Assembly (NCBI GenBank): GCA_963808625.1
Contig: CAWEHK010000054.1
Span: forward strand, 19,123-83,122
Source of the DNA: an uncultured delta proteobacterium
Lineage (GTDB): Bacteria; Desulfobacterota; Syntrophobacteria; Syntrophobacterales; Syntrophobacteraceae
Reading direction: 5' to 3'
Length of the DNA stretch: 64,000 bases
The translations under genes and the position numbers were made by a program. Of this stretch, positions 39,324 to 64,000 are shown one piece after another. Under the pieces are notes generated by a model, which saw nothing but the letters and a program-made list of their open reading frames with translations, did not search any database and was not told the DNA's origin. Within the stretch, counting starts at the first letter, position 1. Every line of letters begins with the position of its first letter.

Positions 39324-39409
39324 TTACCACGAAGAGTACGAAGCGATTTCTTCGCGTTCTTCGTGGTTCGAAAAAGGGCTGAAATGAGTGCAGCTTGTTC
39401 TTGGACAGT
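39324..39409. repeat. Composite repeat D (CTTCGTG-type hairpin + GGGCTGAAATGAGTGCARCTTGTTYTTGGACAGT tail), copy 1
   Basis: TTACCACGAAGAGTACGAAG...CTTCGCGTTCTTCGTGGTTCGAAAAAGGGCTGAAATGAGTGCAGCTTGTTCTTGGACAGT. The inverted copy lies at 54925..55019. Confidence 0.8.
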
Positions 39410-50271: not shown

Positions 50272-50664
50272 CTAAGGCAAGATTCTTTTGATGACCTGCA
50301 GAAGTTCCTCAGCTTCGGGTGGTTTCTCGATGTAGGCCGCCGGCTCCTCGATCTGGCCCCCTTCGTACTCGTCGAGGACTTTCTGGGAGTGGAAGAAGGT
50401 CTTCTTGGCAAGAGCTGAAACCATGATTACGGGGATGGCTTTCAGCTCAGGGTCCTTCTTTAATTCACGATACATGAAGATGCCGCTTTCTTTGGGCATC
50501 ATGACGTCGAGGATGATCAAGGCAGGTTTTTTACTGCGGGCCATCTCCAGCCCCTGCTTGCCGTCTTCTGCTGCAATCGGCTTATAACCGCTGGTCTCCA
50601 GCAAGGTTGTCATGAACACTCTTATATCTTGCTCGTCATCCACCACAAGGACCTTCTTAGACAT
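50272..50664 (-). CDS. Single-domain CheY-like response regulator
   Basis: KKVLVVDDEQD...ALIILDVMMPKESG...IPVIMVSA...YIEKP. Confidence 0.85.
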   Translation of the reverse strand: MSKKVLVVDDEQDIRVFMTTLLETSGYKPIAAEDGKQGLEMARSKKPALIILDVMMPKESGIFMYRELKKDPELKAIPVIMVSALAKKTFFHSQKVLDEYEGGQIEEPAAYIEKPPEAEELLQVIKRILP

Positions 50665-50854: not shown

Positions 50855-51355
50855 CTAATACATCTTATCCGGTAACGTGAACTGCTTGGCCGGGTTCCTT
50901 ATGGCCATGACATGACAGTGGGCGTATTTGGAAACATTAGCCACCGTGCTCCCATGCTCGATCCTGTCCAATTCGGATTTGCCCAGGGCCCCCATCACGA
51001 TCACATCGACGTCGTGCTGTCTGGCATAGCGCAGGATCTCGATGTCGGGCGCACCACAGCGGATGACAAAAAGATAATCCGTAAAATCCCCAAAGCGCTT
51101 CTCGTAAGTTTCCCGCAAATACTTTTCCGCTTGTTGTTCGATGTCCTTGTCGAAAAAGGCTTCCCCCTCCGGGGACTTCTCCTGAGAAACATGTTGATCG
51201 ACCACATCCCGCCGATACCTGGAAGGAGAATGGGGTACATGCAGGATATGCAGCCTTGCTCCATACTTTTTGGCGAGACTGAAGGCATGCATGAACGCGA
51301 TATTGGCATCCTCGGAAAAGTCCGTACAAAACAGGATGTTCTTGTAATCCAACAT
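50855..51355 (-). CDS. Universal stress protein (UspA family)
   Basis: YKNILFCTDFSEDANIAF..AKKYGARLHILHV...DVIVMGALGKSELDRIEHGSTVANV. Confidence 0.85.
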   Translation of the reverse strand: MLDYKNILFCTDFSEDANIAFMHAFSLAKKYGARLHILHVPHSPSRYRRDVVDQHVSQEKSPEGEAFFDKDIEQQAEKYLRETYEKRFGDFTDYLFVIRCGAPDIEILRYARQHDVDVIVMGALGKSELDRIEHGSTVANVSKYAHCHVMAIRNPAKQFTLPDKMY

Positions 51356-51391: not shown

Positions 51392-52552
51392 TTAGTGGAC
51401 CTTGGAGGCGGCAAGGTCATATCTCTTGGGCAGCCTGATGAAAAAGGCCGTCCCTTTGCCCTTTTCCGATGCCAGCTCGATCTCACCGCCATGTTCGGTG
51501 ATGAGCTTCCTGGTGATCATCAGACCCAGGCCCGTCCCCCGGCTCCCCTTCGTGCTGAAGAAATTGTTGAAGACCTTCTCCCTGGTCGCTTCATCCATCC
51601 CGCAGCCGTTGTCGACGACCTGGTATTCCACGGCCCACCCGTTAACCTTGAGAGAGCGCAGAACAATCTCCAGGGATTTGTTTACGCATTCGAGATCGAG
51701 GCACGCATCGAGAGCATTGGTCACGAGGTTTAGCAGGCACGAGCAGATACCATCCGGGTCCAATAGTGTATAATCCAAATCGGATGTCAGTTCCATCTTT
51801 AAAGTGACACCGCAGCCCTCGGCCCGAGAAAACATGAGGTGAAAAACTTCCTTCACCGGCTGATTGGGGTCAGCCAGCTGGAATTCCGGCTCCCTGTCTT
51901 TGGCGTAGTTCAGCAGGTCCAGGGCGAGGTTCTTGATCTTGGCGACATTGCCCTTGAGCATCTCCCAGCCTTGCTCGAAGTATTGCTCGTTGTGCAGTTC
52001 CCTCCCCTTCTCGAGGACAAACATGCCCCCGGTCAGCCCGCCAATAATGTTCTTGATGGCGTGAGCGAGCGTGGCCACGGTTTGACCGATGGCCGCCAGC
52101 CTCTCCGCTTGCAGCAGTTGCTGGGTCTTTTCCAGGACGAGGGCTTCGAGCCCTTCGGTATACTCGCAGAGCTTCTGCCGCATCCACATCCGGTCGTGGG
52201 CTCTTTTCAGCGCGATCTCGAGAGCTTCCTCACTGATCGGTTTGGTGATGAAATCGGCGGCTTCAAACTGCAGACTCCTGATGGCAAGGTCGAGATCGCC
52301 GTGCCCGGTGAGCATAATGACTTCGGTATCGGCGCTTTCCCGTTTGATCCTCTGCAGCAGCTCGATGCCGTCCATTCCCGGCATCTTGATATCGGTCAGA
52401 ACGATGTCCGGCTTTTTCGCCCGGAAGATGCCGAGCGCTTCCTCGCCGTTCGCCGCCGTCAGCACCTCGTAGCCGACGTCCTGCAAAGATATCCCGAGGA
52501 CCTTGCGGATGCCCTCTTCATCATCGACGAGCAGAATCGTTTCCACCATCAT
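51392..52552 (-). CDS. Hybrid response regulator - histidine kinase (REC + HisKA + HATPase)
   Basis: ILLVDDEEG...DIKMPGMDG..., then LAHAIKNIIGG (H-box), VVDNGCGMD, GTGLGLMITRK. Confidence 0.85.
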   Translation of the reverse strand: MMVETILLVDDEEGIRKVLGISLQDVGYEVLTAANGEEALGIFRAKKPDIVLTDIKMPGMDGIELLQRIKRESADTEVIMLTGHGDLDLAIRSLQFEAADFITKPISEEALEIALKRAHDRMWMRQKLCEYTEGLEALVLEKTQQLLQAERLAAIGQTVATLAHAIKNIIGGLTGGMFVLEKGRELHNEQYFEQGWEMLKGNVAKIKNLALDLLNYAKDREPEFQLADPNQPVKEVFHLMFSRAEGCGVTLKMELTSDLDYTLLDPDGICSCLLNLVTNALDACLDLECVNKSLEIVLRSLKVNGWAVEYQVVDNGCGMDEATREKVFNNFFSTKGSRGTGLGLMITRKLITEHGGEIELASEKGKGTAFFIRLPKRYDLAASKVH

Positions 52553-54826
52553 GCCTCACCCGCTATCGGAAATTGAATGATAAAGTTTGACCCCTCGCCT
52601 TCCACCGTTTCCACGCGGATGTCGCCATCGTAATCCTGGACGATGCCGTAGCTGATGGCCAGGCCCAGGCCCGTGCCCCGGCCCACTTTCTTGGTGGTGA
52701 AGAAAGGATCGAAAATCTTGTCGAGCACCGCTGCCGGGATGCCGGTTCCGGTGTCCCCGATTTCAATGATGACCGTGCCGCTCCGAGCGCTCGTCTTGAG
52801 CGTGATCTTCTTGGACAGGCTTCTTTCTCCTGTCTTTTCAATCTTCTCTTCGATGGCATCGCGGGCATTGATGAGCAGGTTGATGAACACCTGTTCGAGG
52901 CGGTTGGAGTTGGCCAAAACCGGTGGAAGGTTCGCCTGCAACTCTCTTATGACTTCAATTTCCCTGAGTTTCAACTGCTGGCTGAAAATGTCCACGGCTT
53001 TTTCCAGGGCTTCATTGACCTGGACGGCTTCTTTTTTGACTTCGGACTTGCGCCCGAATTCCCGCAGATGATTGATAATTTTGGACGCGCGATCGACATG
53101 GCTGTCGATTTCTTCCGCCATCGTGCGCAGGATCGCCTCCTTGATGGCCTCTTCCTTTTTCACTTTCTTGATCAGAAAGCCGCTCGCCGTCTTGATTACC
53201 GAAAGCGGCTGATTCAATTCGTGGGCGATGCCCGTGGCCATCTCGCCGAGCGTGGCCATCTTGCTGGCCTGGATCAGCTGCTGCTCGGCCAGGAGCCTCT
53301 TGGTGATATCGCTCGAAGTAACCAGCAGCGCACTCTTACCAAGATACTCGGAGGGCGAGATACGCATGTCGGTATAGATGACTCGGCCGTCTTTGGTCAC
53401 CTGCCGCACCTGGCTCAGCGCATCGCCGGTCTTGATCTCCCGCGCATAGCGCTGGCGCTCGCCGGCTTCAAACAGGTCCAGAAAAGGAGTCATCAGGACC
53501 TCCTCCTTCTTCAACCCATAGATGGCGGCAACGCCGTCATTGCAGTCGAGGACCGTCAGAGAGAGGCTATCGAGGACGAAAACGGCACTGGGTATGTTCT
53601 TGAAAATAACGCGATACTTTTCCTCCGACTTCCGGATCTCTTCTTCCAGGCGCTTCATCTCAGTAATATCCAGGCTCGTCTCCATCACGGCGGCGATGTT
53701 CCCGTCCTCATCCCGGATGGGCGAGGTCCGGACAATCCAGTGCGACAGCGCGCCGTCTTTGGTGACTCCCATCTCCTCACTCGCATGAGGCTGGCCGTCT
53801 TCGAAGGTCCGGATTACCGGGCACTGTTCGCACCGCTCCGTCCGCCCTTTGTAGGCTTCGTAGCAGTACTCGCCGGGATGAGGGGCGAACTTCTCGATAT
53901 ATTCCCGGTTGTAGCGAAGGAGCCTCAGGTTCCGGTCCTGCACCGTAATATAGCATGGCACCAGTTCAAACAATTCCTGGTATTCCCGCCGCTGAAGGTC
54001 CAATTCCTCCTGTTTTTCGCTGATCTTCCGGCCCATTTGATCAATAGCCGAGGCCAGCTGGCCGATTTCATCCTCTCTTTCGGATGCCATTTCGCTGTGG
54101 AATTGGCCGCGGCCGATGAGGCGCGTCCAGGAGATCAGCTTCTTGATGGGGCGGTTGACGAAAATCATGAGAAAGACGCCGATCATGGCCGAAGTCGCCA
54201 GGAAACTGAATACCGCCAACAGGATGATCCTCGTTTTGTAGGCGAGGATGCCGCGGTCCGTATTTTCGAGAGACATCACGACGTCGAGGGCGCCCAGAAC
54301 TTTTTTGTCCGGAGGATGAACGTGGCAGGGACCGGGGGAACAAGCGGCCTCATTGTAGATGGGACTGATGATTCCGATCAGGCGATGGTCGCCGCGAAGT
54401 CTCGATAATGCGCGTGCGTGACTGGATATCGACCGCTTCCAGGGGGGGATCGGTCCGGTGACAGATATCGCAGGCCTCTGCCTTGATGCTGGTCACCTGA
54501 TCCACTTCTTCGGACTTGTTGGAAAATTTTATCTGCCCTTGCTTGTTATAAATGCGAACATTTTCAATCCCCTGTTGGCGACCGATATTTTTGATGATCT
54601 CGTTGATATCTTCCCGTGAATTGAGCATCATGGCGTAGTGAGTGCCGAGTTTGATGGTATTACCCAGCCGGTCGACTTCTTCAACAATGCCGTCAATAGC
54701 ATTTTTTTTCTGGTATTCGATATTGAAATAGGCCCAGGTAGATATGCTTACAAATAGAATCAATCCAACCAGAAGTATAAGCCTCGAAATAAGGCTGTGA
54801 TAGATATTGCTGAATCGGTTCGACAT
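52549..54826 (-). CDS. Sensor histidine kinase (TM - periplasmic domain with CXXCH - TM - HAMP - 2 PAS - HisKA - HATPase), one frameshift near 54390
   Basis: N-piece 54350..54826 (ACDICH at 54458..54472). It continues in another frame as RGDHRLIGIISPIYNEAACSPGPCHVHPP..VVMSLENTD into ORF 52549..54279 (IAHELNQPL, GDTGTGIP, GTGLGLAISY). Confidence 0.8.
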
Positions 54827-54924
54827 CGCCTGTCGCCTGTCTCTCGATCGTATTTGGGTGAAGATCTCTTGAAATTTTCATGGTAGGACATGGTTGCGTC
54901 CCCACCAGCAGCCTGCCCCAAAAA

Positions 54925-55019
54925 ACTGTCCAAAAACAAGTTGCACTCATTTCAGCCCCTTTCGAACCACGAAGATCACGAAGAAATCACTTCGTGTCCT
55001 TCGTGATCTTCGTGGTAAG
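54925..55019. repeat. Composite repeat D, copy 2 (inverted relative to 39324..39409)
   Basis: The reverse complement reads CTTACCACGAAGATCACGAAGG...CTTCGTGATCTTCGTGGTTCGAAAGGGGCTGAAATGAGTGCAACTTGTTTTTGGACAGT. Confidence 0.8.
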
Positions 55020-55950
55020 AGAAGGCTTTTTAATTTTGGACGCGCCCTACCGGGATGGCTCACGTCATTCAAAAAAACCCGTCCCTGCTGTAATTTTTTC
55101 TGCAGCGGGCGGGTGAAGACAAAGTTCGATTTCAGTTTCAGTTCCTCTTCGGAAAGCCCAAGCGCCAACCCGATGAACTGCGGCAGATAGAGAATCGATA
55201 CGGTCAGGTCCTCACCGGCGATCTTGGAGGCCTTGGACTGGTAGCTATCGAGATTCATCTGGCACATGGGGCAGATGGTGACGATGCAGTCAGCCCCCTT
55301 CGCTGCCTTCAGGATGCGCCCCACCGCGTCCAGGGCGGCTTCCTTTTTCGTTGTCATCAGGCCGGCGCCGCAGCACCTGGGACCCATCGACCACCGGTGA
55401 ACTTCGGCCCCAAGCGCCTCGATGAGCGGTTCCATGGATTTCGGCTCCTCGGGATCATCGAAGGTGGCATAAGGGCGAAGAGCCTGGCAGCCATAGTATG
55501 GGGCAACCGCAGTCCGGCAAGCGAGTGTTTTGCCCGCTCGCGGACCATTTCAGGGCCGATGTCGTTGGCCAGCACATCCAGGAGATGGCGGACCCTGATG
55601 CCGCCCTGATAGACCAGCTGTTCCTCCGCCAGAACTTGATTGATGTCCCTCAGCAATTTGTCATTCTGTTTGACCTGGTCTTCAACCTTTTGCAGATTCA
55701 AGTAGCAGGCACTGCAAGGGACCAGGAAGTCGGCCTTGAGCGCGGTTCGCTCAGCCAGGGCGAGGTTGCGCGCGGGAAGGACCATGGCCAGGAGGTAGCT
55801 GACCGCGTCGCCGGCGCTCGCCCCGCAGCAGGTCCAGTCTTCCAGCTCCAGCAGCTCCCCTCCCAGAGCGCGCATAACCGCTCGCGTCGAGGCATCGTAT
55901 TCGATTGCGGTGCCTTCCAGCGAGCAGCCGGGGTAATAAAAGTATTTCAT
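54947..55950 (-). CDS. hdrB: Heterodisulfide reductase subunit B-like (two CCG domains), one frameshift at the G-run 55500..55503
   Basis: MKYFYYPGCSLEG...DWTCCGA...VPCSACY... then (one C missing on the coding strand) PYYGCQALRPY...RCCGAG...ICPMCQMNLD. The 3' end of the ORF runs into repeat D. Confidence 0.8.
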
Positions 55951-56525
55951 GAACGTGCCTCCAGTTCCCGCACCTTTTGATAGATTGCCTCCAGTTTCCC
56001 CTTGCCGGAAAAGGTCGGCATTTGCGGTGCAATTTTCCCCTTAACCATCAGCTTTATCCCCAGACGAGTGAAGCCGATGGGGGTAATGGGATTCTTGAGG
56101 GAGAGAAAATACCGGGTCATCATCTCCATTTCCCTCACTCGTCCATAGCGCCGAACGGTATCGAGGAAGGTTTGGTAGAACAGGGGACTTTTCTTGTCGA
56201 TGGCCAGTCCTTCCGCAACGGCCAGGCGCTTCAGGGCGCCGATGGTCTCCGTCAGGGGCAGGCCCCGCGGGCAGCGCAGCGTGCAGTAGTAGCAGCTTGA
56301 GCAAAGCCAGAAGGTCTTGCTGTTAAAGATGTCCTCCTTGAGACCCAGCAGCACCATTCGCCACAATTGCCGTGGGGTAACGTCCATGGCATGGGCATTG
56401 GGGCAGGAACCGGTGCAGGTGCCACATTGCATGCAGGCGCTCACGTTTTCCCAAATTGCCAGCATGGGATCGGCGCCGGCCGATGCCGGGGCCCCTGCCG
56501 GCGCGTCGGATTTATGGGAACTCAT
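55947..56525 (-). CDS. hdrC: Heterodisulfide reductase subunit C-like (2x[4Fe-4S])
   Basis: CMQCGTCTGSCP and CSSCYYCTLRCP cluster motifs. 4-nt overlap with hdrB. Confidence 0.85.
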   Translation of the reverse strand: MSSHKSDAPAGAPASAGADPMLAIWENVSACMQCGTCTGSCPNAHAMDVTPRQLWRMVLLGLKEDIFNSKTFWLCSSCYYCTLRCPRGLPLTETIGALKRLAVAEGLAIDKKSPLFYQTFLDTVRRYGRVREMEMMTRYFLSLKNPITPIGFTRLGIKLMVKGKIAPQMPTFSGKGKLEAIYQKVRELEARS

Positions 56526-56630: not shown

Positions 56631-59600
56631 TCAAAAAATCTCCTCCAGAGCGGCATCGAGCACCGCATGGATCTGCTGGTCCTTGAACCCGCGCAGCACC
56701 GAAGCACTGTTGGGGCAAACGGCGGCACACGTTCCGCAGCCCTGGCACATGAGCTCGTTGACCAGGATGCGCTCCTCTTCTTCATCGCGATAGCGGGCCC
56801 CATAGGGACAGGCTGCCATACACCGTTCACAGAGGGAACAAAGGCTATGGCGGACTTCGGCGGCGATACTGCCGCCGGCAACCATTCTCCGGCTGAGCAG
56901 CACCAGAGCGCGCTGCGCTGCCGCTTCCGCCGTGGCAATTGATTCGGTAAGGGAGCGGGGGGAGTGGGCAAGGCCACAGGTATAAATTCCTTCCTTGACA
57001 AAGTCCACCGGCCGCCACTTGGACTCGGCTTCCTGGAAGAAGCCATCCTGGTTCAGCGCGACGCCGAAGACCTCCGCGAGGTGTCCCTGCGCCTCCGGCA
57101 CGATGCCGGTGCTGAGGACCAGGAGATCCGCCTCGAAGGTGATCTCACGGCCAAGGATGGGGTCCCGGGCGGTCACCGAAAGGCGGCCGTCTGCCACTGC
57201 TGCCCGGGGCTTTTCATCCACCTCATACTGAACAAAGAGCACGCCCGATTTACGCGCCTGGGTGTAATAAGTCTCGAGGAAACCGTAGGTCATAATGTCC
57301 CGGTAGAAGATGGTGATGTCGACCTCCGGGTTCTTTTCCTTCAGATAGAGCGCATTTTTCAGCGCCGAGGCACAGCAGATCCGGCTGCAGTAGTTGCGGC
57401 CCTCGATTCTCGAGTCCACGCACTGGATCATGACAACTGCTTGCAGACTCTGGGGATCCACTGCACCTTGATGAAGTCTCTCTTCGAGCTCATGCTGGGT
57501 GATGACGGCATCGCTTTGGCCGTAGCAATAGGATTCCGTTCTGGCTTCACGGGCCCCCGTAGCCAAGACGGTTACGCCGTGATCCAGCAACTCGCCCGTG
57601 CCGTCCTCGCTTTCGATGGTCGTGAGGAAATGCCCCACCTGACCCTGCGAATGGATGATCCGGGTGTTCTTGTGGAGGTGGATGTGCGGATGCCCCGTGA
57701 CCCTGGCAATGGTCTTTTGCAGCAGGTCCTGGGGCGAGGGGCCCTCGAGGGTGCGGTAAAGATTCCGCAAATTGCCCCCCAGTTCGCCACTCCGTTCCAC
57801 GAGGTTCACCTCGAAACCATGGTCGGCAATGGCCAGTGCCGCGCTCATACCCGCGAGACCGCCGCCCACCACGAGGGCCTTTTGAACCATTTCCGTGGTG
57901 GCGTGGAGGACGGCATCCATCCCCTGGAGTCTGGCCAGCCCCATATGCAAAGCGGTCTGGATTTCCCGCCTGAGTTGCACCGGCTCGAGGTTGTGCCCGG
58001 GAAAGGCCGGGGTCCGAATGTCAATGACCTCCATGAGGCTCGGCTGGAGTCCGATCGCTTCCCCCAGTTCCCGCAGTTTTCTCGCATAGAGATAGGGCAG
58101 ACAGGCCCCGATCAGGACGCGGTTCGACCGCCCGCCCTGGAGCGCTTCCTGCAGCTCAGCCCAGCCTTCCCGAGTGCAGAGCCGCTCGATGGGGAAGACC
58201 TGGCTCCCTGGAACGGAACGCTCCATTTCTGCCGCCAAAGCAGTGAGGCCGGCCGCGTCCATGATGGTGCCGCCGCAATTGCAGAGCGCGATCGCCACTC
58301 GCGGAAGCTCCCGGGAGACATCACGAAAGAGGTCTTGAGGGCTCTTTACCTCGGCCAGGCCGCCCCCTTTTGCGTGGATCAGCGTCGATGCCGCAAGCGA
58401 GGATGAACTTGCCTGAATGACCGATTCGGAAATGTCTTTCAGACCGGAGAATGAGCCGCTGACCAGCACACCCTCGGAGCCCGTGAGGCTGGTCGAAAAG
58501 TCTTTGACTTTGCAGAACCCCCACTGATTGAGCTCCATTCCGGTCAGCTCGGCGAGGGCTTCCATCCCCGCTGAGGGCCTTTGACCGGTGGCGAGCACCA
58601 CGAGATCGAAAATTTCATCGTGCATGACGCCGGCCAGGTCGGTGTAGGACAGTCTCAGGTCCCCTGCGGGACCCAATGGTTCAACCGTATGCACCCGGCT
58701 TCTCACAAACCGGACCCCGAATTCATTCTCGGCGCGGTCGCGGTAGCGCTGGAAATCCTTTCCGAAAGTCCGCATATCCATGTAAAAGATCGCGGCATCA
58801 ACGGCGCTCGCGCCGCGTTCTTTGAGCAGGAGCGCTTCTTTGATGGAAAACATGCAGCAGATGGAAGAACAGTAATCGGCATCATCATTGAGGCTTCGCG
58901 ATCCCACGCACTGCAGCCAGGCCACCTTGCGCACCTCCTTGCCGTCGCTCGGTCGCAGGACTTGCCCTCCGGTCGGGCCCGTGCCGCTGATCAGCCGCTC
59001 AAATTCGATGCTCGTCAGGACATTGGGCAATTCACCGTAGCCATAAGTGTTTTTCCCGGTTTTTGGATCAAAGGAACCGAACCCGGCAGCCAGGATCACC
59101 GCCCCCACTTCGATCTCGCGCTCGGTAACGCGTTGAATGCTCCGGAAGCGCTGCACGACCATCGACACCAGGGCTTCGATGTCGAAGGGCTTCAGCAAAT
59201 AATCGATAGCCCCAAGCTTCATTGCTTCCACGGCGTTTTCCACGGTCGCGTAAGCGGTCATCATCGCCACCGGGAGGTCCGGGCGCATCTCCTTTGCCCG
59301 CCTGAAGACCTCGACGCCATCCATGCCCGGCATCTTGACGTCCAGCAGCATCAGGTTGAATTCCTGGCGGGCGATCTTCTCGAGCGCTTCGGCCCCGGAC
59401 CCGGCCATTTCCACACTGAAGCCCTCATCTTCGAGCCACTCCTTGACCGAGTCGCGGACCACCAGTTCATCGTCCACAACCAGCACGTGGAAGGTCTTGC
59501 GAAGATCCAGCTGGAGATCGATGGCCCCGGTCGGGCACACCTTTTCGCACTCTCCGCACCGTTTGCAGGCTGCCAAATCAAGCACATAGTGATTGGGGAG

Positions 59601-60060
59601 GTTGTGCGGTACCGGGAGGTAGATGGCCTTCCGCATGCTGAGGCCGGCGTTGAACTCGTCCGGGACCTCGGCCGGGCAGACGCGGGAACACTCACCGCAG
59701 CCGATGCAGCGCGCGGGGTCGACCTTGTTGAGCTGGTAGCGCAGGCGTGGCCCGGAATTTTCCCGGTTCTCCCTCGAGGCCGATGAGCTCCGTCTCCAGC
59801 ATGATATCGATGTTCTCGTGGAAGAGCCCCCTCCGCAAACAGTACTGGGAAGCAGCGTCGCGCTCCACCAGCGGCAGCATTTTGCACATGCCGCAGTGGT
59901 CATTCGGGAACTGGTAGTCGAGCTGCCTCAGGGTGCCACCAAGATTGGGCGCCTTATCGACAAGCGTCACCCGGTAACCCAGCTCTGCCAAATCCAGAGC
60001 GGACCGGATCCCGCTGATCCCGGCTCCCACGATCAAAGCTGAGCCAATTTTCTTATCCAT
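56631..60060 (-). CDS. hdrA: Double HdrA-like flavoprotein with an inserted CheY-type receiver domain, one frameshift near 59744
   Basis: N-piece 59692..60060 (IVGAGISGIRSALDLAELG, CGMCKM). Then CIGCGECSRVCP / CKRCGECEKVCP, REC at 59154..59492, HdrA core (LQCVGSRS..YCSSICC), a second HdrA module (VVGGGLAGMSAALA, IQCVDSR..YCSRICC), and a C-terminal 2x[4Fe-4S]. Confidence 0.8.
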
Positions 60061-60074
60061 AGCTGCAACCCTTC

Positions 60075-61220
60075 CTAATCCTTCCCGCCCGTGACTTCGG
60101 AGAATTCCTTCTCACGGAATGCCGACAACGGAGGCTCATCTTCAAGGCTGCGGCCAGCCTCGTAGTCAAAAGCTCGCTGGGTATAATTGGCGATGGTGCG
60201 GAAGAGTTCCATGACGGGAATATTGTTGGGACATGCGTTGGAACACTGGCCACAGCCAATGCACGCCGTGCTCATGTGAGCCAGCCTGGTCAGATGGTAA
60301 AATACGGTGTCCGTCGGCATCTTGAGGATGCCTTTGCGCCTAGCCCAGCGCAGATACTGTGACGGTTCGTGATCGAAGACATCGGTGACAAAAACGCATT
60401 CCTTGCAGTAACACACCGGACAGGCCACCCGGCAGTTGTAGCAATTGACGCAGCCGCTGAGGTAGCTCATGAGCCTGTCCAGGTCCTTAGTCGCTTCACT
60501 GGTCTCGAGAAACATCTCATCCCGATAGGCGGCGCGTTCCGCCAGCAGTTCCGCGATGGCGGCTTTTCGGCCTGCGGGTGGCTGCCCTTCGGGTAATCCC
60601 AACTTGTCCAGGAGCGCCTCCCCGGCCGGAGATCCGGCTTCGACACTCAGACTGCTGTTGATATCACCTCCCAGCAGGCCGATGAGCACATCCGCGTTTT
60701 CCGGGATAGGGTGGTCACAGGCCTTGCATGCCGGGGATAGATCGAAATCCTCGAAGGCCGTGCCTTTGCCCTGAGCAATGTTCTGATAGAACCTGAGGGT
60801 GGATGCCGCGCCGTTGGCCCCGGCAAACCCTGCATAGTTGACATTGCTGTAAGCGCCAAGGCAGTCCACCCCAATCAGCAGAATCTCCTCGACGCTCCCC
60901 TGTTTCAGCTTCACCAGTTCGATGAAGGCCCTGATTTCGCAGGGTCGAAGAACTACGGCAAGACGGCTGCCGATAGGCTTGCGCGACAGTTTCGACACCA
61001 CTTTCGCGGCGTTGATCGGGAATGCGGGCGCCAGGGGATCGATGCCGTCAAGCCTTTCCGGGTCGGTCACCAGCATCGGCATGACCGTGTTTCTCCCCGG
61101 AAGATGCTGGGCCGCCAGCAGGCCGGCAAATTCTCCCGACTCGAGCAGCGCCTTGAAAAAGGTCCTCAGGGAGGCAACCGGATCCTGGTCTTTTACCTCA
61201 ATTTTCATTACCTTGCTCAT
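60075..61220 (-). CDS. FrhB/FdhB-family Fe-S protein (F420-hydrogenase/dehydrogenase beta-like) with a 2x[4Fe-4S] domain
   Basis: ..VLRPCEIRAFIELVK..IGVDCLG.., CVNCYNCRVACPVCYC, CIGCGQCSNACP. GGAGAA lies before the ATG at 61220. Confidence 0.65.
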   Translation of the reverse strand: MSKVMKIEVKDQDPVASLRTFFKALLESGEFAGLLAAQHLPGRNTVMPMLVTDPERLDGIDPLAPAFPINAAKVVSKLSRKPIGSRLAVVLRPCEIRAFIELVKLKQGSVEEILLIGVDCLGAYSNVNYAGFAGANGAASTLRFYQNIAQGKGTAFEDFDLSPACKACDHPIPENADVLIGLLGGDINSSLSVEAGSPAGEALLDKLGLPEGQPPAGRKAAIAELLAERAAYRDEMFLETSEATKDLDRLMSYLSGCVNCYNCRVACPVCYCKECVFVTDVFDHEPSQYLRWARRKGILKMPTDTVFYHLTRLAHMSTACIGCGQCSNACPNNIPVMELFRTIANYTQRAFDYEAGRSLEDEPPLSAFREKEFSEVTGGKD

Positions 61221-61258
61221 GGCTTTTCTCCAACCTGTTCCAGAATTCCGGAGGGCAA

Positions 61259-61681
61259 TCAAATTACCATCTGCTTACGCGTTGCATTGGGGCCGAGCGC
61301 TTTGACCTCAGCCACCAGCTCCCTGATCGTCCTGGCAAAATCGATCCCCTCACTGGCGCCAATCCAGGTCATCTTCAGCCGGCCCTCATCAAAACCAAAC
61401 CTCGGCAGGATTTCCTTCAGGAGTTTTATCCGCCGCCGCGCCTTGAGATTGCCGTTGATGTAGTGGCAGTCTCCCGGGTGGCAGCCGCTGATGAGCACCG
61501 CGTCCGCCCCTTCCAGCAAGGCTTTGATTACGTACTTGGGGTCCACCATCCCCGTGCACATCATCCGGATCATGCGCACGTTGAACGGCTGAATCAGCCG
61601 TGAGGTCCCCGCCAGATCGGCTGCGGTATAGGTGCACCAGTTGCACACGAACGCGATGATCGTGGGTTCATAGCCTTCCAT
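61259..61681 (-). CDS. mvhD: MvhD-like (methyl-viologen-reducing hydrogenase delta subunit) protein
   Basis: IIAFVCNWCTYTAADLAG...MIRMMCTGMVD...LISGCHPGDCHY. GGAGGAA lies 3 nt (CCT) before the ATG at 61681; the ORF is open to 61705. Confidence 0.85.
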   Translation of the reverse strand: MEGYEPTIIAFVCNWCTYTAADLAGTSRLIQPFNVRMIRMMCTGMVDPKYVIKALLEGADAVLISGCHPGDCHYINGNLKARRRIKLLKEILPRFGFDEGRLKMTWIGASEGIDFARTIRELVAEVKALGPNATRKQMVI

Positions 61682-61694
61682 AGGTTCCTCCATC

Positions 61695-64000
61695 TCAGAT
61701 AGCATCCAGCATGCCTTCGATTTCTGCGAAGACCTGCCTGGCCGTGAAATGTTTGATGCGCGCCGCGCCGCTGGGGCAAAAACCCGAACAGCTTCCGCAA
61801 CCCTTGCACACCGCCTCGTTTACCACCGAGACCCCCCGGCGCTCATCAAACTCGATGGCCGAGTAGGCGCACAGTTTGATGCAGGTCTGACAACCCGCGC
61901 ACACATCGGGGTCGATCCAGGAAGTGGTGGGAGAGATTTCAACCTTCCCGAAGGTAGCCAGAGCGAGCGCCTGTGCTGCGGCGCCCGAAGCATGGGAGAC
62001 CGTATCGGGAATGTCTTTCGGTCCCTGGCAGGCGCCGGCCAGAAAGATGCCGTCGGTAGCCGTGGTCATCGGCCCAAGCTTGGGGTGTTCTTCCAGGAAA
62101 AAGCCGTCCCCTCCCTGGTTGATGCCGAAGACCCTGGCCACATCCGAGGCGTCCTCCCGCTGTTGCATGGCCGTGCACAGCACCACCATGTCCACCGGAA
62201 CGCGCAGGCGTCTCCCCAGCAGGGTATCTTCCGCAACCACAACGAGCTTGCCCTGCTCGGCCGGGGCTTCCGGCTGATCGGTGATTTCTGCCGGCCTTCC
62301 CCGAATGAAGGTAACTCCCTCTTCCTGCAGCCTTCGGTAAAACTCCTCGTAGCCTTTTCCGAAGCAGCGCATATCGATGTAGAAATTGTAAACGCGGGTA
62401 TCGTGCCCGACCTTCTCCTTGATCAGGTGGCCGTACTTCAGCGCATACATACAGCAGACGCGGGAGCAGTATTCGTGAAAGTTGACATCGCGGCTGCCCA
62501 CGCAGTGAACGATGGCAACGCTGCCCGGGCTTCCTGCCGTCCTTCATCAGGATTTGCCCGCCGGTTGGTCCCACGGCGTTGTTCAAGCGTTCGAATTCGA
62601 GGCCGGTATAGACCTCCTCAAAGCGCCCATAGCCATATTGCTTGAGCGGCGTGGGGTCCATGATGTCGAAGCCGGTGGCAAGAACGATGGTGCCCACCTT
62701 CACCTCCAGGTCCTGGGCGCTCATGCTGTGGTCTACGGCATTGCGCTCACAGGCCTTGACGCATTCCAGGCATTCCGAGCAAACCATGCAGTTGAGACAC
62801 TTGTGAGCCTCCGCCTGGGCTTGTTCCTCGGTGAGACCCAGCTCGACTTCCTCAAAACCGGTTCGTCTTTGATCCATGGAAATGGTCGCCATCTGGGCCC
62901 GGGGTTGTATTGGAAGAGCTTCCGGCAACGGCGAGAAATCCTCCTGCGGCACGGTAACGGGTTCGCGACCGGCTCGCAGGTCTTCTCCTTTGAGGAACCT
63001 GGAAATCGAGATGGCGGCTTCTTTCCCCTGGGCCACGGCGCTGATCGCAATCCAGGGCCCGGATTGGGCGTCACCGCCGGCAAAGACCCCTTCCCGGCTG
63101 GTGGCAAAGGTGACGGGATCGGTCTCGATGGTTCCCTTGCGGCTGAGGGTCAAGCCTTCGCCATTCGCCAGGAAAAGCGAATCCGGCGCTTGCCCGATGG
63201 CCGGGATGATCCAGTCCGCCTCGACCTCGAACTCACTCCCGGCTACCGGTACCGGACGCCTCCTTCCCGAAGCATCCGGCTCGCCCAGTTCCATCCGAAG
63301 ACACTGCATGCCGGTTGCCCTGCCATCCCTGGTGAGCACCTGCGACGGCGCGGTCAGATACTGGATTTCGACGCCCTCGGCCAGGGCGTCTTCAACTTCG
63401 TTTTCGCGAGCCGGCATTTCCCGGCGGGTACGACGATAGAATATGCTCACCTTCGAGGCGCCCAGTCGCGTAGCCACCCGTGCCGCATCGATGGCCACAT
63501 CACCACCGCCGACAATGATCACTTTGCCTTGTATCCCGGGGAAGTTCACCAAGGTTGGCCCGGCGCAGGAACTCAACACCATGCATCACCCCGTCGGCAT
63601 CCTCACCGGGAACATTCAGCTTGTGGCTGCGGTGGGCGCCGATCCCCACGTAGACCGCCCGGTACCCCTGAGCAAACAGATCATCGATGGTGAAGTCTTT
63701 GCCGAGAGCGGTGTTGAACCTGGTATCCACGCCGAGCCGGGTGATCGCCCGAATCTCTTTGTCCAGGACCGCCGGCGGCAGCCGGTAGTCGGGGATGCCC
63801 ACCCGCAGCATGCCGCCCGCGACGGGAAGGGCCTCGAAGATGGTGGTCTGGTAACCATCAAGCGCGAGGAAATAAGCGGCGCTAAGACCGGCGGGACCGG
63901 AGCCGATAATCGCCACCTTCTCGTCTCGCTTTTCAATCTCCGGAATCGGCAACTCTTCAAGATCCACCTGGTCGGCCACGAAGCGTTTCAGAGCGCAGAT
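61695..64000 (-). CDS. HdrL-like fusion: GltD-type NAD(P)H/FAD module + HdrA C-terminal module + 2x[4Fe-4S]. 5' end lies outside the window; two frameshifts
   Basis: VAIIGSGPAGLSAAYFLA...GGMLRVGIPDYRLP (GltD-like), VIIVGGGDVAIDAAR, then CLNCMVCSECLECVKAC, HCVGSRD..YCSRVCC, CAGCQTCIKLC / CKGCGSCSGFCP. The breaks are at the GGGG run 63538..63541 and the CCCGGG at 62523..62528. Confidence 0.75.

Follow-up and report, generated by a model that had tools for sequence, protein, structure and literature searches.

A CheY-like receiver domain inserted into a tandem HdrA-like flavoprotein of Syntrophobacterales and Desulfobacterales

Domain architecture of the flavoprotein

The window analysed here, a stretch of 64,000 nucleotides from an uncultured delta proteobacterium of the Syntrophobacteraceae (contig CAWEHK010000054.1), encodes on its minus strand a flavoprotein related to heterodisulfide reductase subunit A (HdrA) that carries a CheY-like receiver (REC) domain within its first flavin module. 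The gene is read as two overlapping minus-strand open reading frames (ORFs), 59692..60060 (122 aa, with the N-terminus of a Rossmann domain for flavin adenine dinucleotide, FAD) and 56631..59903 (1090 aa). When one base around positions 59744-59746 is deleted, direct reading of the DNA yields a single protein of 1142 aa containing GEPGKFRATLRYQLNKVDPARCIGCGEC. The Pfam content of the 1090-aa ORF comprises four Fer4 stretches, Response_reg, and a second Pyr_redox_2/FAD motif. The domains of the frame-corrected protein, with the evidence for each, are as follows.

56631..60060, minus strand: tandem HdrA-like flavoprotein with inserted receiver, two modules (ORFs, frame correction, Pfam, 5odc_A, at least 119 homologue clusters)
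59746..60060, minus strand: first part of the module 1 FAD (thioredoxin-reductase-like) domain, aa 1-105 (Pfam NAD_binding_8/Pyr_redox; 5odc_A 145-311)
59505..59732, minus strand: inserted 2x[4Fe-4S] ferredoxin domain, aa 110-185 (Pfam Fer4; aligned to HdrA 238-311)
59124..59504, minus strand: REC (CheY-like) receiver insertion, aa 186-312 (PF00072; Pfam core 59157..59486)
58371..59123, minus strand: remainder of the module 1 FAD domain, aa 313-563 (aligned to 5odc_A 318-458)
57903..58310, minus strand: HdrA N-terminal-type domain between the modules, aa 584-719 (aligned to 5odc_A 2-168)
56880..57902, minus strand: module 2 FAD domain, aa 720-1060 (Pfam Pyr_redox_2, PDB alignment, sequence read directly)
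56634..56879, minus strand: module 2 C-terminal 2x[4Fe-4S] ferredoxin domain, aa 1061-1142 (Pfam Fer4_10/Fer4_7; 5odc_A 466-644)

The HdrA of Methanothermococcus (5odc_A) aligns to the frame-corrected protein with an E-value of 5e-117 in four collinear pieces.

Query 7-183 with HdrA 145-311: start of the FAD domain and the inserted ferredoxin domain
Query 315-457 with HdrA 318-458: continuation of the FAD domain
Query 584-750 with HdrA 2-168: N-terminal cluster domain, then the start of the second FAD domain
Query 957-1132 with HdrA 466-644: end of the FAD domain and the ferredoxin domain at the C-terminus

This alignment and the predicted fold bear out the HdrA identity given in a preliminary description of the locus, and the HdrA motifs LQCVGSRS and YCSSICC are located downstream of the receiver, as it had also noted. 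Because the alignment with 5odc_A is piecewise, the receiver can be placed between HdrA residues 311 and 318, the position at which the inserted ferredoxin domain rejoins the FAD domain; the preliminary description had likewise set it between the 2x[4Fe-4S] insert and the rest of the HdrA core. A search of known structures with the AlphaFold2 model of the orthologue P0002 (84% identical; mean predicted local distance difference test score, pLDDT, 75.8; predicted template modelling score 0.73) returned HdrA structures as the best matches and no structure with this REC-in-HdrA architecture.

Both modules contain a GxGxxG FAD domain and the CxGSR...YCSxxCC [4Fe-4S] motif, and the cluster-binding cysteines are all invariant among 42 sequences. 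In module 1, residues 1-105 include the GxGxxG motif together with C56 and C59, which align to HdrA Cys194 and Cys197 and belong to the invariant set. The ferredoxin insert, directly upstream of the receiver, has two four-cysteine motifs (C118/121/124/128 and C165/168/171/175; codons checked) and is the sole inserted ferredoxin domain of the whole protein. The remainder of module 1 holds the CVGSRS...YCSSICC cluster motif (C384, C397, C401, and C402, all invariant). The cysteines of the N-terminal-type domain (C593, C595, C628, and C653) are also invariant. The module 2 FAD domain is marked by GGGLAG and by C880, C891, C895, and C896, with neither an inserted ferredoxin domain nor equivalents of Cys194/197; the second HdrA-like module of the preliminary description is therefore present but not complete.

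The N-terminal, inserted, and C-terminal cluster domains of HdrA occur in one copy each, spread over both modules (query 584-750, 110-183, and 957-1132, respectively). The modules are complementary, with the Cys194/197 equivalents and the ferredoxin insert in module 1 and the N-terminal-type domain and C-terminal ferredoxin domain in module 2, so that the polypeptide would form its own asymmetric HdrA "dimer" with one full set of electron-path elements.

The inserted receiver domain

The block identified in the preliminary description at 59154..59492 scores as a full receiver domain: it matches profile positions 1-110 of 111 of Response_reg (PF00072) at 110.5 bits, where the cutoff is 30.2, with an E-value of 6.2e-32. 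The match covers residues 140-249 of the 1090-aa ORF, or 59157..59486 of the window. When the E. coli CheY sequence was compared with the receiver block by BLASTP, the two were 39% identical (E = 2e-20) and aligned in register, with D196/D197 corresponding to CheY D12/D13, D240 to D57, T268 to T87, Y287 to Y106, and K290 to K109. The codons of all six residues were checked on the DNA.

59469..59474, minus strand: D196/D197 acidic pair
59340..59342, minus strand: D240, phospho-acceptor
59256..59258, minus strand: T268
59199..59201, minus strand: Y287, aromatic switch
59190..59192, minus strand: K290

These six residues are retained in 128-130 of 132 aligned homologues, even in clusters with only 41-54% overall identity. 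The intact hallmark residues had been noticed in the preliminary description. In the P0002 model the receiver adopts a canonical (beta-alpha)5 fold (aa 191-308, pLDDT about 88-91), and about three residues connect its last helix, alpha5 (294-308), to a strand of the FAD domain (312-318). The receiver is predicted to be phosphorylation-competent. The presence of a receiver at this site is thus confirmed where it was first described, far beyond chance.

A receiver of a different protein closely resembles the insert. Beside the operon in L009 lies a Usp-REC-Usp protein (L009:14851-16182, minus strand) whose receiver matches the HdrA insert at 168 bits, as strongly as the inserts of orthologues do; it may be a relative or the donor of the inserted domain.

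A private single-base insertion interrupts the reading frame

The frame break noted in the preliminary description near 59744 is present in the sequence as one additional base.

59745..59745, minus strand: one extra C, with loss of the frame between codons T105 and L106 (alignment with L001 and L002)

The DNA used for comparison was L001, which is 90% identical in nucleotide sequence and bears a long-read-style contig name, and L002, which encodes P0002 (84% protein identity). A full-length alignment of the three gene sequences shows a single extra C in the window, which neither L001 nor L002 has, and L001 carries a private extra G of its own at the position equivalent to 57070 of the window. 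Over the 13.8 kb shared with L001, other isolated, unshared 1-bp indels occur at 63543, 62529 (hdrL), 55508 (hdrB), and 54394 (kinase), and the L001 kinase has an unshared 1-bp indel at 53462. The ratio of nonsynonymous to synonymous substitution rates (dN/dS) relative to L002 is 0.03 in the N-terminal part before the break, 0.04 in the ferredoxin insert, 0.09 in the receiver, and 0.13 in the remainder, and values relative to the more distant L083 are similar. Since the extra base is private, neighbouring genes also have unshared indels, and dN/dS is low on both sides of the break, the extra C is most likely an assembly or sequencing indel. Programmed frameshifting was rejected, as there is no slippery site and relatives do not have the extra base. 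The assembly looks indel-prone in the manner of long-read data, with hdrL, hdrB, and the kinase gene HK1 each split into several ORFs, and ORF calls across the window therefore need frame correction before use.

That the receiver might be an assembly chimera, or the frameshift the mark of a dead gene, has in its favour the broken frame itself and the public gene call of this exact sequence (P0001), which starts downstream of the break and is 1001 aa long. We regard this as very improbable: more than a hundred independent assemblies, as well as genome bins from several families, have the architecture, the indel is private and accompanied in neighbouring genes by others that are equally unshared, and the 1090 codons contain no stop. 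One private 1-bp insertion flanked on either side by sequence with dN/dS of 0.03-0.13 does not describe a pseudogene, and the substitution pattern shows what we take to be a genuine, functional member of its family under strong purifying selection.

Homologues and evolution of the insertion

A search with the frame-corrected protein gave 5565 relatives, and PF00072 is found in 119 of the best 120 clusters (63-84% identical, about 1142 aa), which derive from NCBI, ENA, JGI, and Logan assemblies. Their source annotations read "FAD-dependent oxidoreductase", "response regulator", or "heterodisulfide reductase subunit A". The expectation in the preliminary description that similar fusions exist in related genomes was thus right, but they are not unannotated, as pipelines detect the domain and name the protein a response regulator or an FAD-dependent oxidoreductase. 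Genome bins of Syntrophobacteraceae are among the named carriers, as is the cultured Desulfoferrobacter suflitae. A library of 50% identity clusters contains about 13 full-length clusters, and fragments besides, that align in one piece through the ferredoxin insert, receiver, and FAD domain; these clusters have 41-54% overall identity to the query and the receiver in the identical position. The shared insertion point, in at least 119 clusters and down to 41% identity, argues against a chimera.

A scan of one genome per species gave full-coverage matches in Syntrophobacterales, Desulfobacteraceae, Desulfosarcinaceae, Desulfococcaceae, Desulfobacterales, and Desulfotignum bins, and the family is accordingly placed by these matches in both Syntrophobacterales and Desulfobacterales. 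Of the 80 loci in that scan, about 65 are ordinary response regulators, only L003-L015 belong to the family, and L017 and L069 are tandems that have no receiver; because its search patterns were receiver motifs, the scan is not a census. Seven multi-receiver matches from the search of the 50% identity library (P0213, P0215, P0222, P0244, P0258, P0273, and P0274) were set aside as false leads, since in Pfam they consist of summed receivers with no HdrA part.

Bacterial relatives without the receiver, about 1000 aa in length, are also numerous. In the receiver-less P0011 (1018 aa; L086:10001-13057), which is 80% identical to the query, residues 186-312 are replaced by about three residues. Neighbour-joining trees of the core, from which the receiver columns had been removed, put all receiver-bearing sequences in one clade, with the receiver-less P0011, P0156, and P0157 nested inside it. 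In 100 bootstrap replicates, support was 93 for the grouping of P0011 with the query and P0002, 98 for the placement of P0011 in the clade whose members are at least 64% identical, 75 for P0156 with P0134, and 46 for the deep node that joins the whole clade. Because a receiver-less orthologue is nested within the receiver-bearing clade, the receiver is an accessory, conserved but dispensable. One gain of the receiver followed by several precise losses is likely; the bootstrap value of 46% at the deep node is the reason that a single origin is called only likely.

Other arrangements of the same parts were also seen. Two cluster representatives, P0143 (576 aa) and P0144 (664 aa), stop where module 1 naturally finishes and may be split, single-module versions that keep the receiver, or truncated gene calls. 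On one metagenome contig, P0147 (L090:273-3926) combines three N-terminal receivers with a single HdrA-type module and is immediately followed by a hybrid histidine kinase; this 3xREC-HdrA is a second, independent architecture.

The hdr operon

The genes on either side of the flavoprotein gene are those of an hdr operon.

61695..64000, minus strand: hdrL, partial (leaves the window), HdrA with an NfnB/GltD-like NAD(P)H domain (split by 1-bp indels; ORFs, NCBIfam)
61259..61705, minus strand: mvhD (FlpD) (PF02662, E = 1e-49)
60075..61262, minus strand: FrhB/FdhB-like iron-sulfur protein (PF04432, E = 7.5e-7, and Fer4; conserved neighbour)
55947..56525, minus strand: hdrC-like (Fer4_8/Fer4_9; orthologue NCBIfam CoB_CoM_SS_C)
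54947..55950, minus strand: hdrB-like, two CCG domains (PF02754 on both ORFs; split by a 1-bp deletion near 55508)

The order hdrL, mvhD, frhB-like, hdrA(REC), hdrC, hdrB is kept in loci with enough flanking sequence; in L008 and L014, hdrA is not followed by hdrC and hdrB. Orthologues of hdrL are intact in L001 and L083 (L083:4917-8297) and encode 1122-1126 aa. The NCBIfam layout of HdrL (HdrA2 at positions 1-295, GltD-like at 288-794, HdrA at 301-652) shows that its foreign domain enters after about HdrA residue 296, in the same region as the receiver insertion. A single operon thus holds two HdrA paralogues with different foreign domains in the same hot spot.

In L086, the receiver-less locus, all six genes of the operon recur, no kinase adjoins them, and the Wood-Ljungdahl genes folD and formate-tetrahydrofolate ligase (fhs) come next. 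As they derive from the same sample, the receiver-bearing operon of L001 and the receiver-less operon of L086 are possibly paralogues of one genome.

At the 3' end of hdrB and upstream of HK1, the window contains a 139-bp insertion (54907..55045) that is absent from L001; it contains a palindrome made up of CACGAAG heptads, the 27-nt arms of which show 85% complementarity, and the GC content dips to 0.44 at this place. A similar hairpin lies at 39328..39365 (5 pattern matches observed versus 0.03 expected). The two look like copies of a small dispersed palindromic element resembling repetitive extragenic palindromes or miniature inverted-repeat transposable elements. Rfam identified no RNA family in the window.

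Neighbouring signalling genes

Downstream of hdrB lies a cluster of signalling genes.

52549..54826, minus strand: HK1, membrane histidine kinase (Pfam; split by an indel near 54394)
51392..52552, minus strand: REC-kinase, receiver and HATPase_c (Pfam; NCBIfam kinase-like matches at aa 142-377; conserved partner of HK1)
50855..51355, minus strand: Usp (Pfam; signalling cluster)
50272..50664, minus strand: single-domain receiver (Pfam; signalling cluster)

HK1 consists, in order, of a transmembrane segment, a periplasmic domain with CxxCH and Cx4CH motifs, a second transmembrane segment, HAMP, a cysteine-rich PAS domain, a further PAS domain, HisKA, and HATPase. This layout is common to seven aligned orthologues, in which the periplasmic domain is about 160 aa and both haem motifs are conserved, and the first PAS domain has four conserved cysteines (C...C-x11-C-x2-C), with orthologues in L010-L015 and L083. 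The CxxCH and Cx4CH motifs are candidate c-type haem sites. The periplasmic domain gave no significant sequence match in the PDB and no Pfam family at threshold; a sub-threshold match (22 bits versus 27) to PF21563, a chemoreceptor sensor family that we take to be a haem-c sensor of Geobacter, provides a tentative link. This part of HK1 may represent a type of dihaem redox sensor not described before.

The start of the REC-kinase gene overlaps the stop of HK1, and the Usp and single-domain receiver genes are kept in L001, L004, and L083. Among 16 distinct receiver-bearing loci with usable flanks, HK1 and/or REC-kinase orthologues adjoin 12 (the window, L001, L004, where the whole cluster is inverted, L007, L008, L010-L015, and L083), and a hybrid kinase takes their place in L002, L006, and L009. 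The two kinases pointed out in the preliminary description are thus conserved neighbours across orders. The conserved core of the cluster has no DNA-binding output.

Sigma-54-type motifs (TGGCAY-N5-TTGCY) occur upstream of hdrL in three of 11 loci (L001:4656, L004:2359, and L007:210), a frequency too inconsistent for them to serve as a basis for any reading, and they were dropped. Pairs of a sigma-54 response regulator and a kinase flank several loci. There may be a layer of transcriptional control besides the receiver insert.

A branched phosphorelay would be one use of so many receivers. Under this explanation the signal runs in reverse, the redox state of the iron-sulfur clusters tuning how the receiver takes up or loses phosphate, so that the enzyme reports its load to a relay whose members are the REC-kinase, the single receiver, and the sigma-54 regulator; the HdrA receiver would be a phosphate sink and reporter and not a regulated output. 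Branching or competition is plausible since the receivers of the REC-kinase, REC1, and the hybrid kinase share the cluster, and the receiver is wedged between redox domains. However, the core cluster offers no conserved transcriptional output on which such a report could act, and the kinase already has candidate redox sensors in its haem motifs and cysteine-rich PAS domain, and we consider this explanation unlikely.

Proposed mechanism

Flavin-based electron bifurcation is a central energy-coupling device of strict anaerobes, and its known control is, to our knowledge, transcriptional or conformational and not by covalent signalling. Bifurcation by the present enzyme would follow from its homology to HdrA. 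The preliminary description proposed that the receiver puts the enzyme under direct phosphorylation control, and this is likewise what we infer. We see an even chance that the enzyme is regulated by phosphorylation of D240, probably by way of the one low-potential ferredoxin port that it has. In HdrA, low-potential electrons exit via the inserted ferredoxin domain (PMC9012536, PMC13518236). The receiver of the P0002 model is joined by very short linkers between this ferredoxin arm and the flavin domain.

In the sequence of events that we propose, the periplasmic sensor of HK1, with its two haem motifs, and the cysteine-rich PAS domain would supply the redox status as input, and HK1, directly or via the REC-kinase, would phosphorylate D240. 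Phosphorylation would alter the alpha4-beta5-alpha5 face of the receiver, and the change would be transmitted via alpha5 to the flavin domain and via beta1 to the ferredoxin insert. The insert, as the low-potential branch, would be repositioned or locked and electron flow through the ferredoxin branch thereby gated, such that the coupled flow through HdrL, MvhD, the FrhB-like protein, HdrA, and HdrBC could be switched on or off or reversed (bifurcation versus confurcation) according to redox status. The fuller proposal, in which a two-kinase cascade directly phosphorylates an Hdr-type enzyme and gates its ferredoxin port while HK1 reads the periplasmic cytochrome or redox pool via c-type haems, is more tentative, and we hold it possible but somewhat doubtful.

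The receiver's own relationships bear on how a phosphoryl group might act. By NCBIfam score its nearest families are of the NtrC/AtoC/FixJ types (about 94-100 bits), whose receivers signal through alpha4-beta5-alpha5 dimerisation. Phosphorylation might therefore serve as an assembly switch, promoting receiver-receiver dimerisation or the binding or release of a partner and so setting the oligomeric state of the complex, and HdrABC complexes are indeed dimeric (PMC9012536). In this protein, however, the HdrA "dimer" is already present in a single chain by virtue of the tandem fusion, and very short linkers flank the receiver on both sides and favour intramolecular coupling, which leaves assembly control an improbable alternative to gating of the ferredoxin port by D240 phosphorylation.

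Several observations weigh against that gating. Both the action of a kinase on D240 and the gating itself are inferred, and the predicted model has no usable inter-domain geometry. In the L003 locus there is no kinase within 2.8 kb. In L089 (L089:3-6272), HK1 and REC-kinase lie directly upstream of the receiver-less tandem HdrA P0157, and the kinases can therefore be linked to the enzyme without the insert. Because the start/stop-coupled partner of HK1 is the REC-kinase, the primary target of HK1 is possibly not the HdrA receiver. In the lineage of P0145 (L088:1862-5329), the receiver is degenerate, with DP for DD, Thr changed to Gly, and Lys to His, so the domain is able to persist without phospho-chemistry. 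P0145 is a pseudo-receiver version of the same protein. The contigs that carry P0145 and P0156 do not extend far enough to reveal their downstream genes.

These same observations could be gathered under a different explanation, namely that the receiver fold is a structural or docking module (for HdrL, MvhD, or FrhB-like partners, or as a stabiliser of the ferredoxin arm) that is not phosphorylated in vivo, while the kinases serve other receivers and transcription. P0145 keeps the domain despite its degenerate catalytic residues, the receiver-less orthologues show that the core works without it, L089 pairs both kinases with a receiver-less HdrA, and sigma-54 response regulators are found in several loci. 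Yet the degenerate receiver is confined to one lineage, and near-invariance of the five phospho-chemistry residues and the aromatic switch over 132 sequences, including the clusters of 41-54% identity, is unexpected for a mere scaffold; we judge a purely structural role to have only a small probability.

If the fuller proposal of a two-kinase cascade is true, flavin-based electron bifurcation would have its first post-translational phospho-switch, and within seconds sulfate reducers and syntrophs could start, stop, or reverse their energy coupling. The arrangement suggests fast, signal-dependent control of the coupling of NAD(P)H, ferredoxin, and disulfide acceptor in organisms living near the thermodynamic limit. 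The idea is directly testable because receiver-less and degenerate-receiver orthologues exist, as does a cultured carrier, Desulfoferrobacter suflitae.

Comparison with known systems

By homology the protein belongs to both the HdrA superfamily and the receiver-domain family. Its best match in sequence and fold is the methanogen HdrA of the HdrABC-MvhAGD and Fdh-Hdr-Fmd complexes (PDB 5ODC, 8RVU, and 7BKB), with which it has in common the FAD domain, the CxGSR...YCSxxCC motif, all three types of cluster domain, and hdrB, hdrC, and mvhD as neighbours. It differs from the methanogen protein in being bacterial, in having two fused modules between which the domains are divided, and in the 127-aa receiver between residues 311 and 318. 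Against the NCBIfam equivalogs NF041778 (HdrA2) and NF040770 (HdrA), P0002 scores 687 bits versus 1100 and 549 versus 1400, respectively; because these scores are below the cutoffs, the protein is to be read as an HdrA-like paralogue and not as the methanogen CoB-CoM HdrA.

Response regulators with enzymatic outputs, such as CheB, PleD, and RpfG, are generally known and likewise have a canonical receiver covalently linked to an enzyme, with partner kinases nearby. Here, by contrast, the receiver is internal to the catalytic domain and is not an N-terminal module, and the output is a multi-cluster redox flavoenzyme and not a hydrolase, cyclase, or DNA-binding domain. The 3xREC-HdrA P0147 resembles the present protein in that receivers are fused to an HdrA-type module with a hybrid kinase immediately downstream, but there the three receivers are N-terminal to a single HdrA module, in contrast to the one internal insert described here.

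Fused HdrAs have been described in anaerobic methanotrophic (ANME) archaea (HdrA3/4) and in the MetFV-HdrABC-MvhD complex of Moorella thermoacetica, in which Cys197 and the N-terminal domain are complementary between modules and the chain is read as a self-heterodimer (PMC9012536). These also have two complementary HdrA modules per chain; they have no receiver, and the order of the modules is reversed in our protein, where the Cys197-bearing module comes first. An NfnB/GltD-like domain is inserted at the ferredoxin region of HdrA9-11 of ANME-1 (PMC9012536) and of "HdrL" of Desulfobacterium autotrophicum (PMC2702500). There, too, a whole foreign domain has entered HdrA in this region, which is a hot spot where insertions are tolerated. 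That domain, an NAD(P)H/FAD redox module, brings in a further point of electron entry, whereas the insert here is a signalling domain that has no cofactor. The exit of the HdrA ferredoxin insert appears tolerant of whole-domain insertions, a property possibly useful for engineering.

In agreement with the preliminary description, which knew of no characterised example, we found no description of a receiver inserted in an HdrA-type flavoenzyme in the 8 million full texts searched, candidate genome papers included, and none of the searched terms is present in PMC5296606. Fused HdrAs, domain insertions at this site, and response regulators with enzymatic outputs were already known; what appears to be new is a receiver inside an HdrA-type flavoenzyme.

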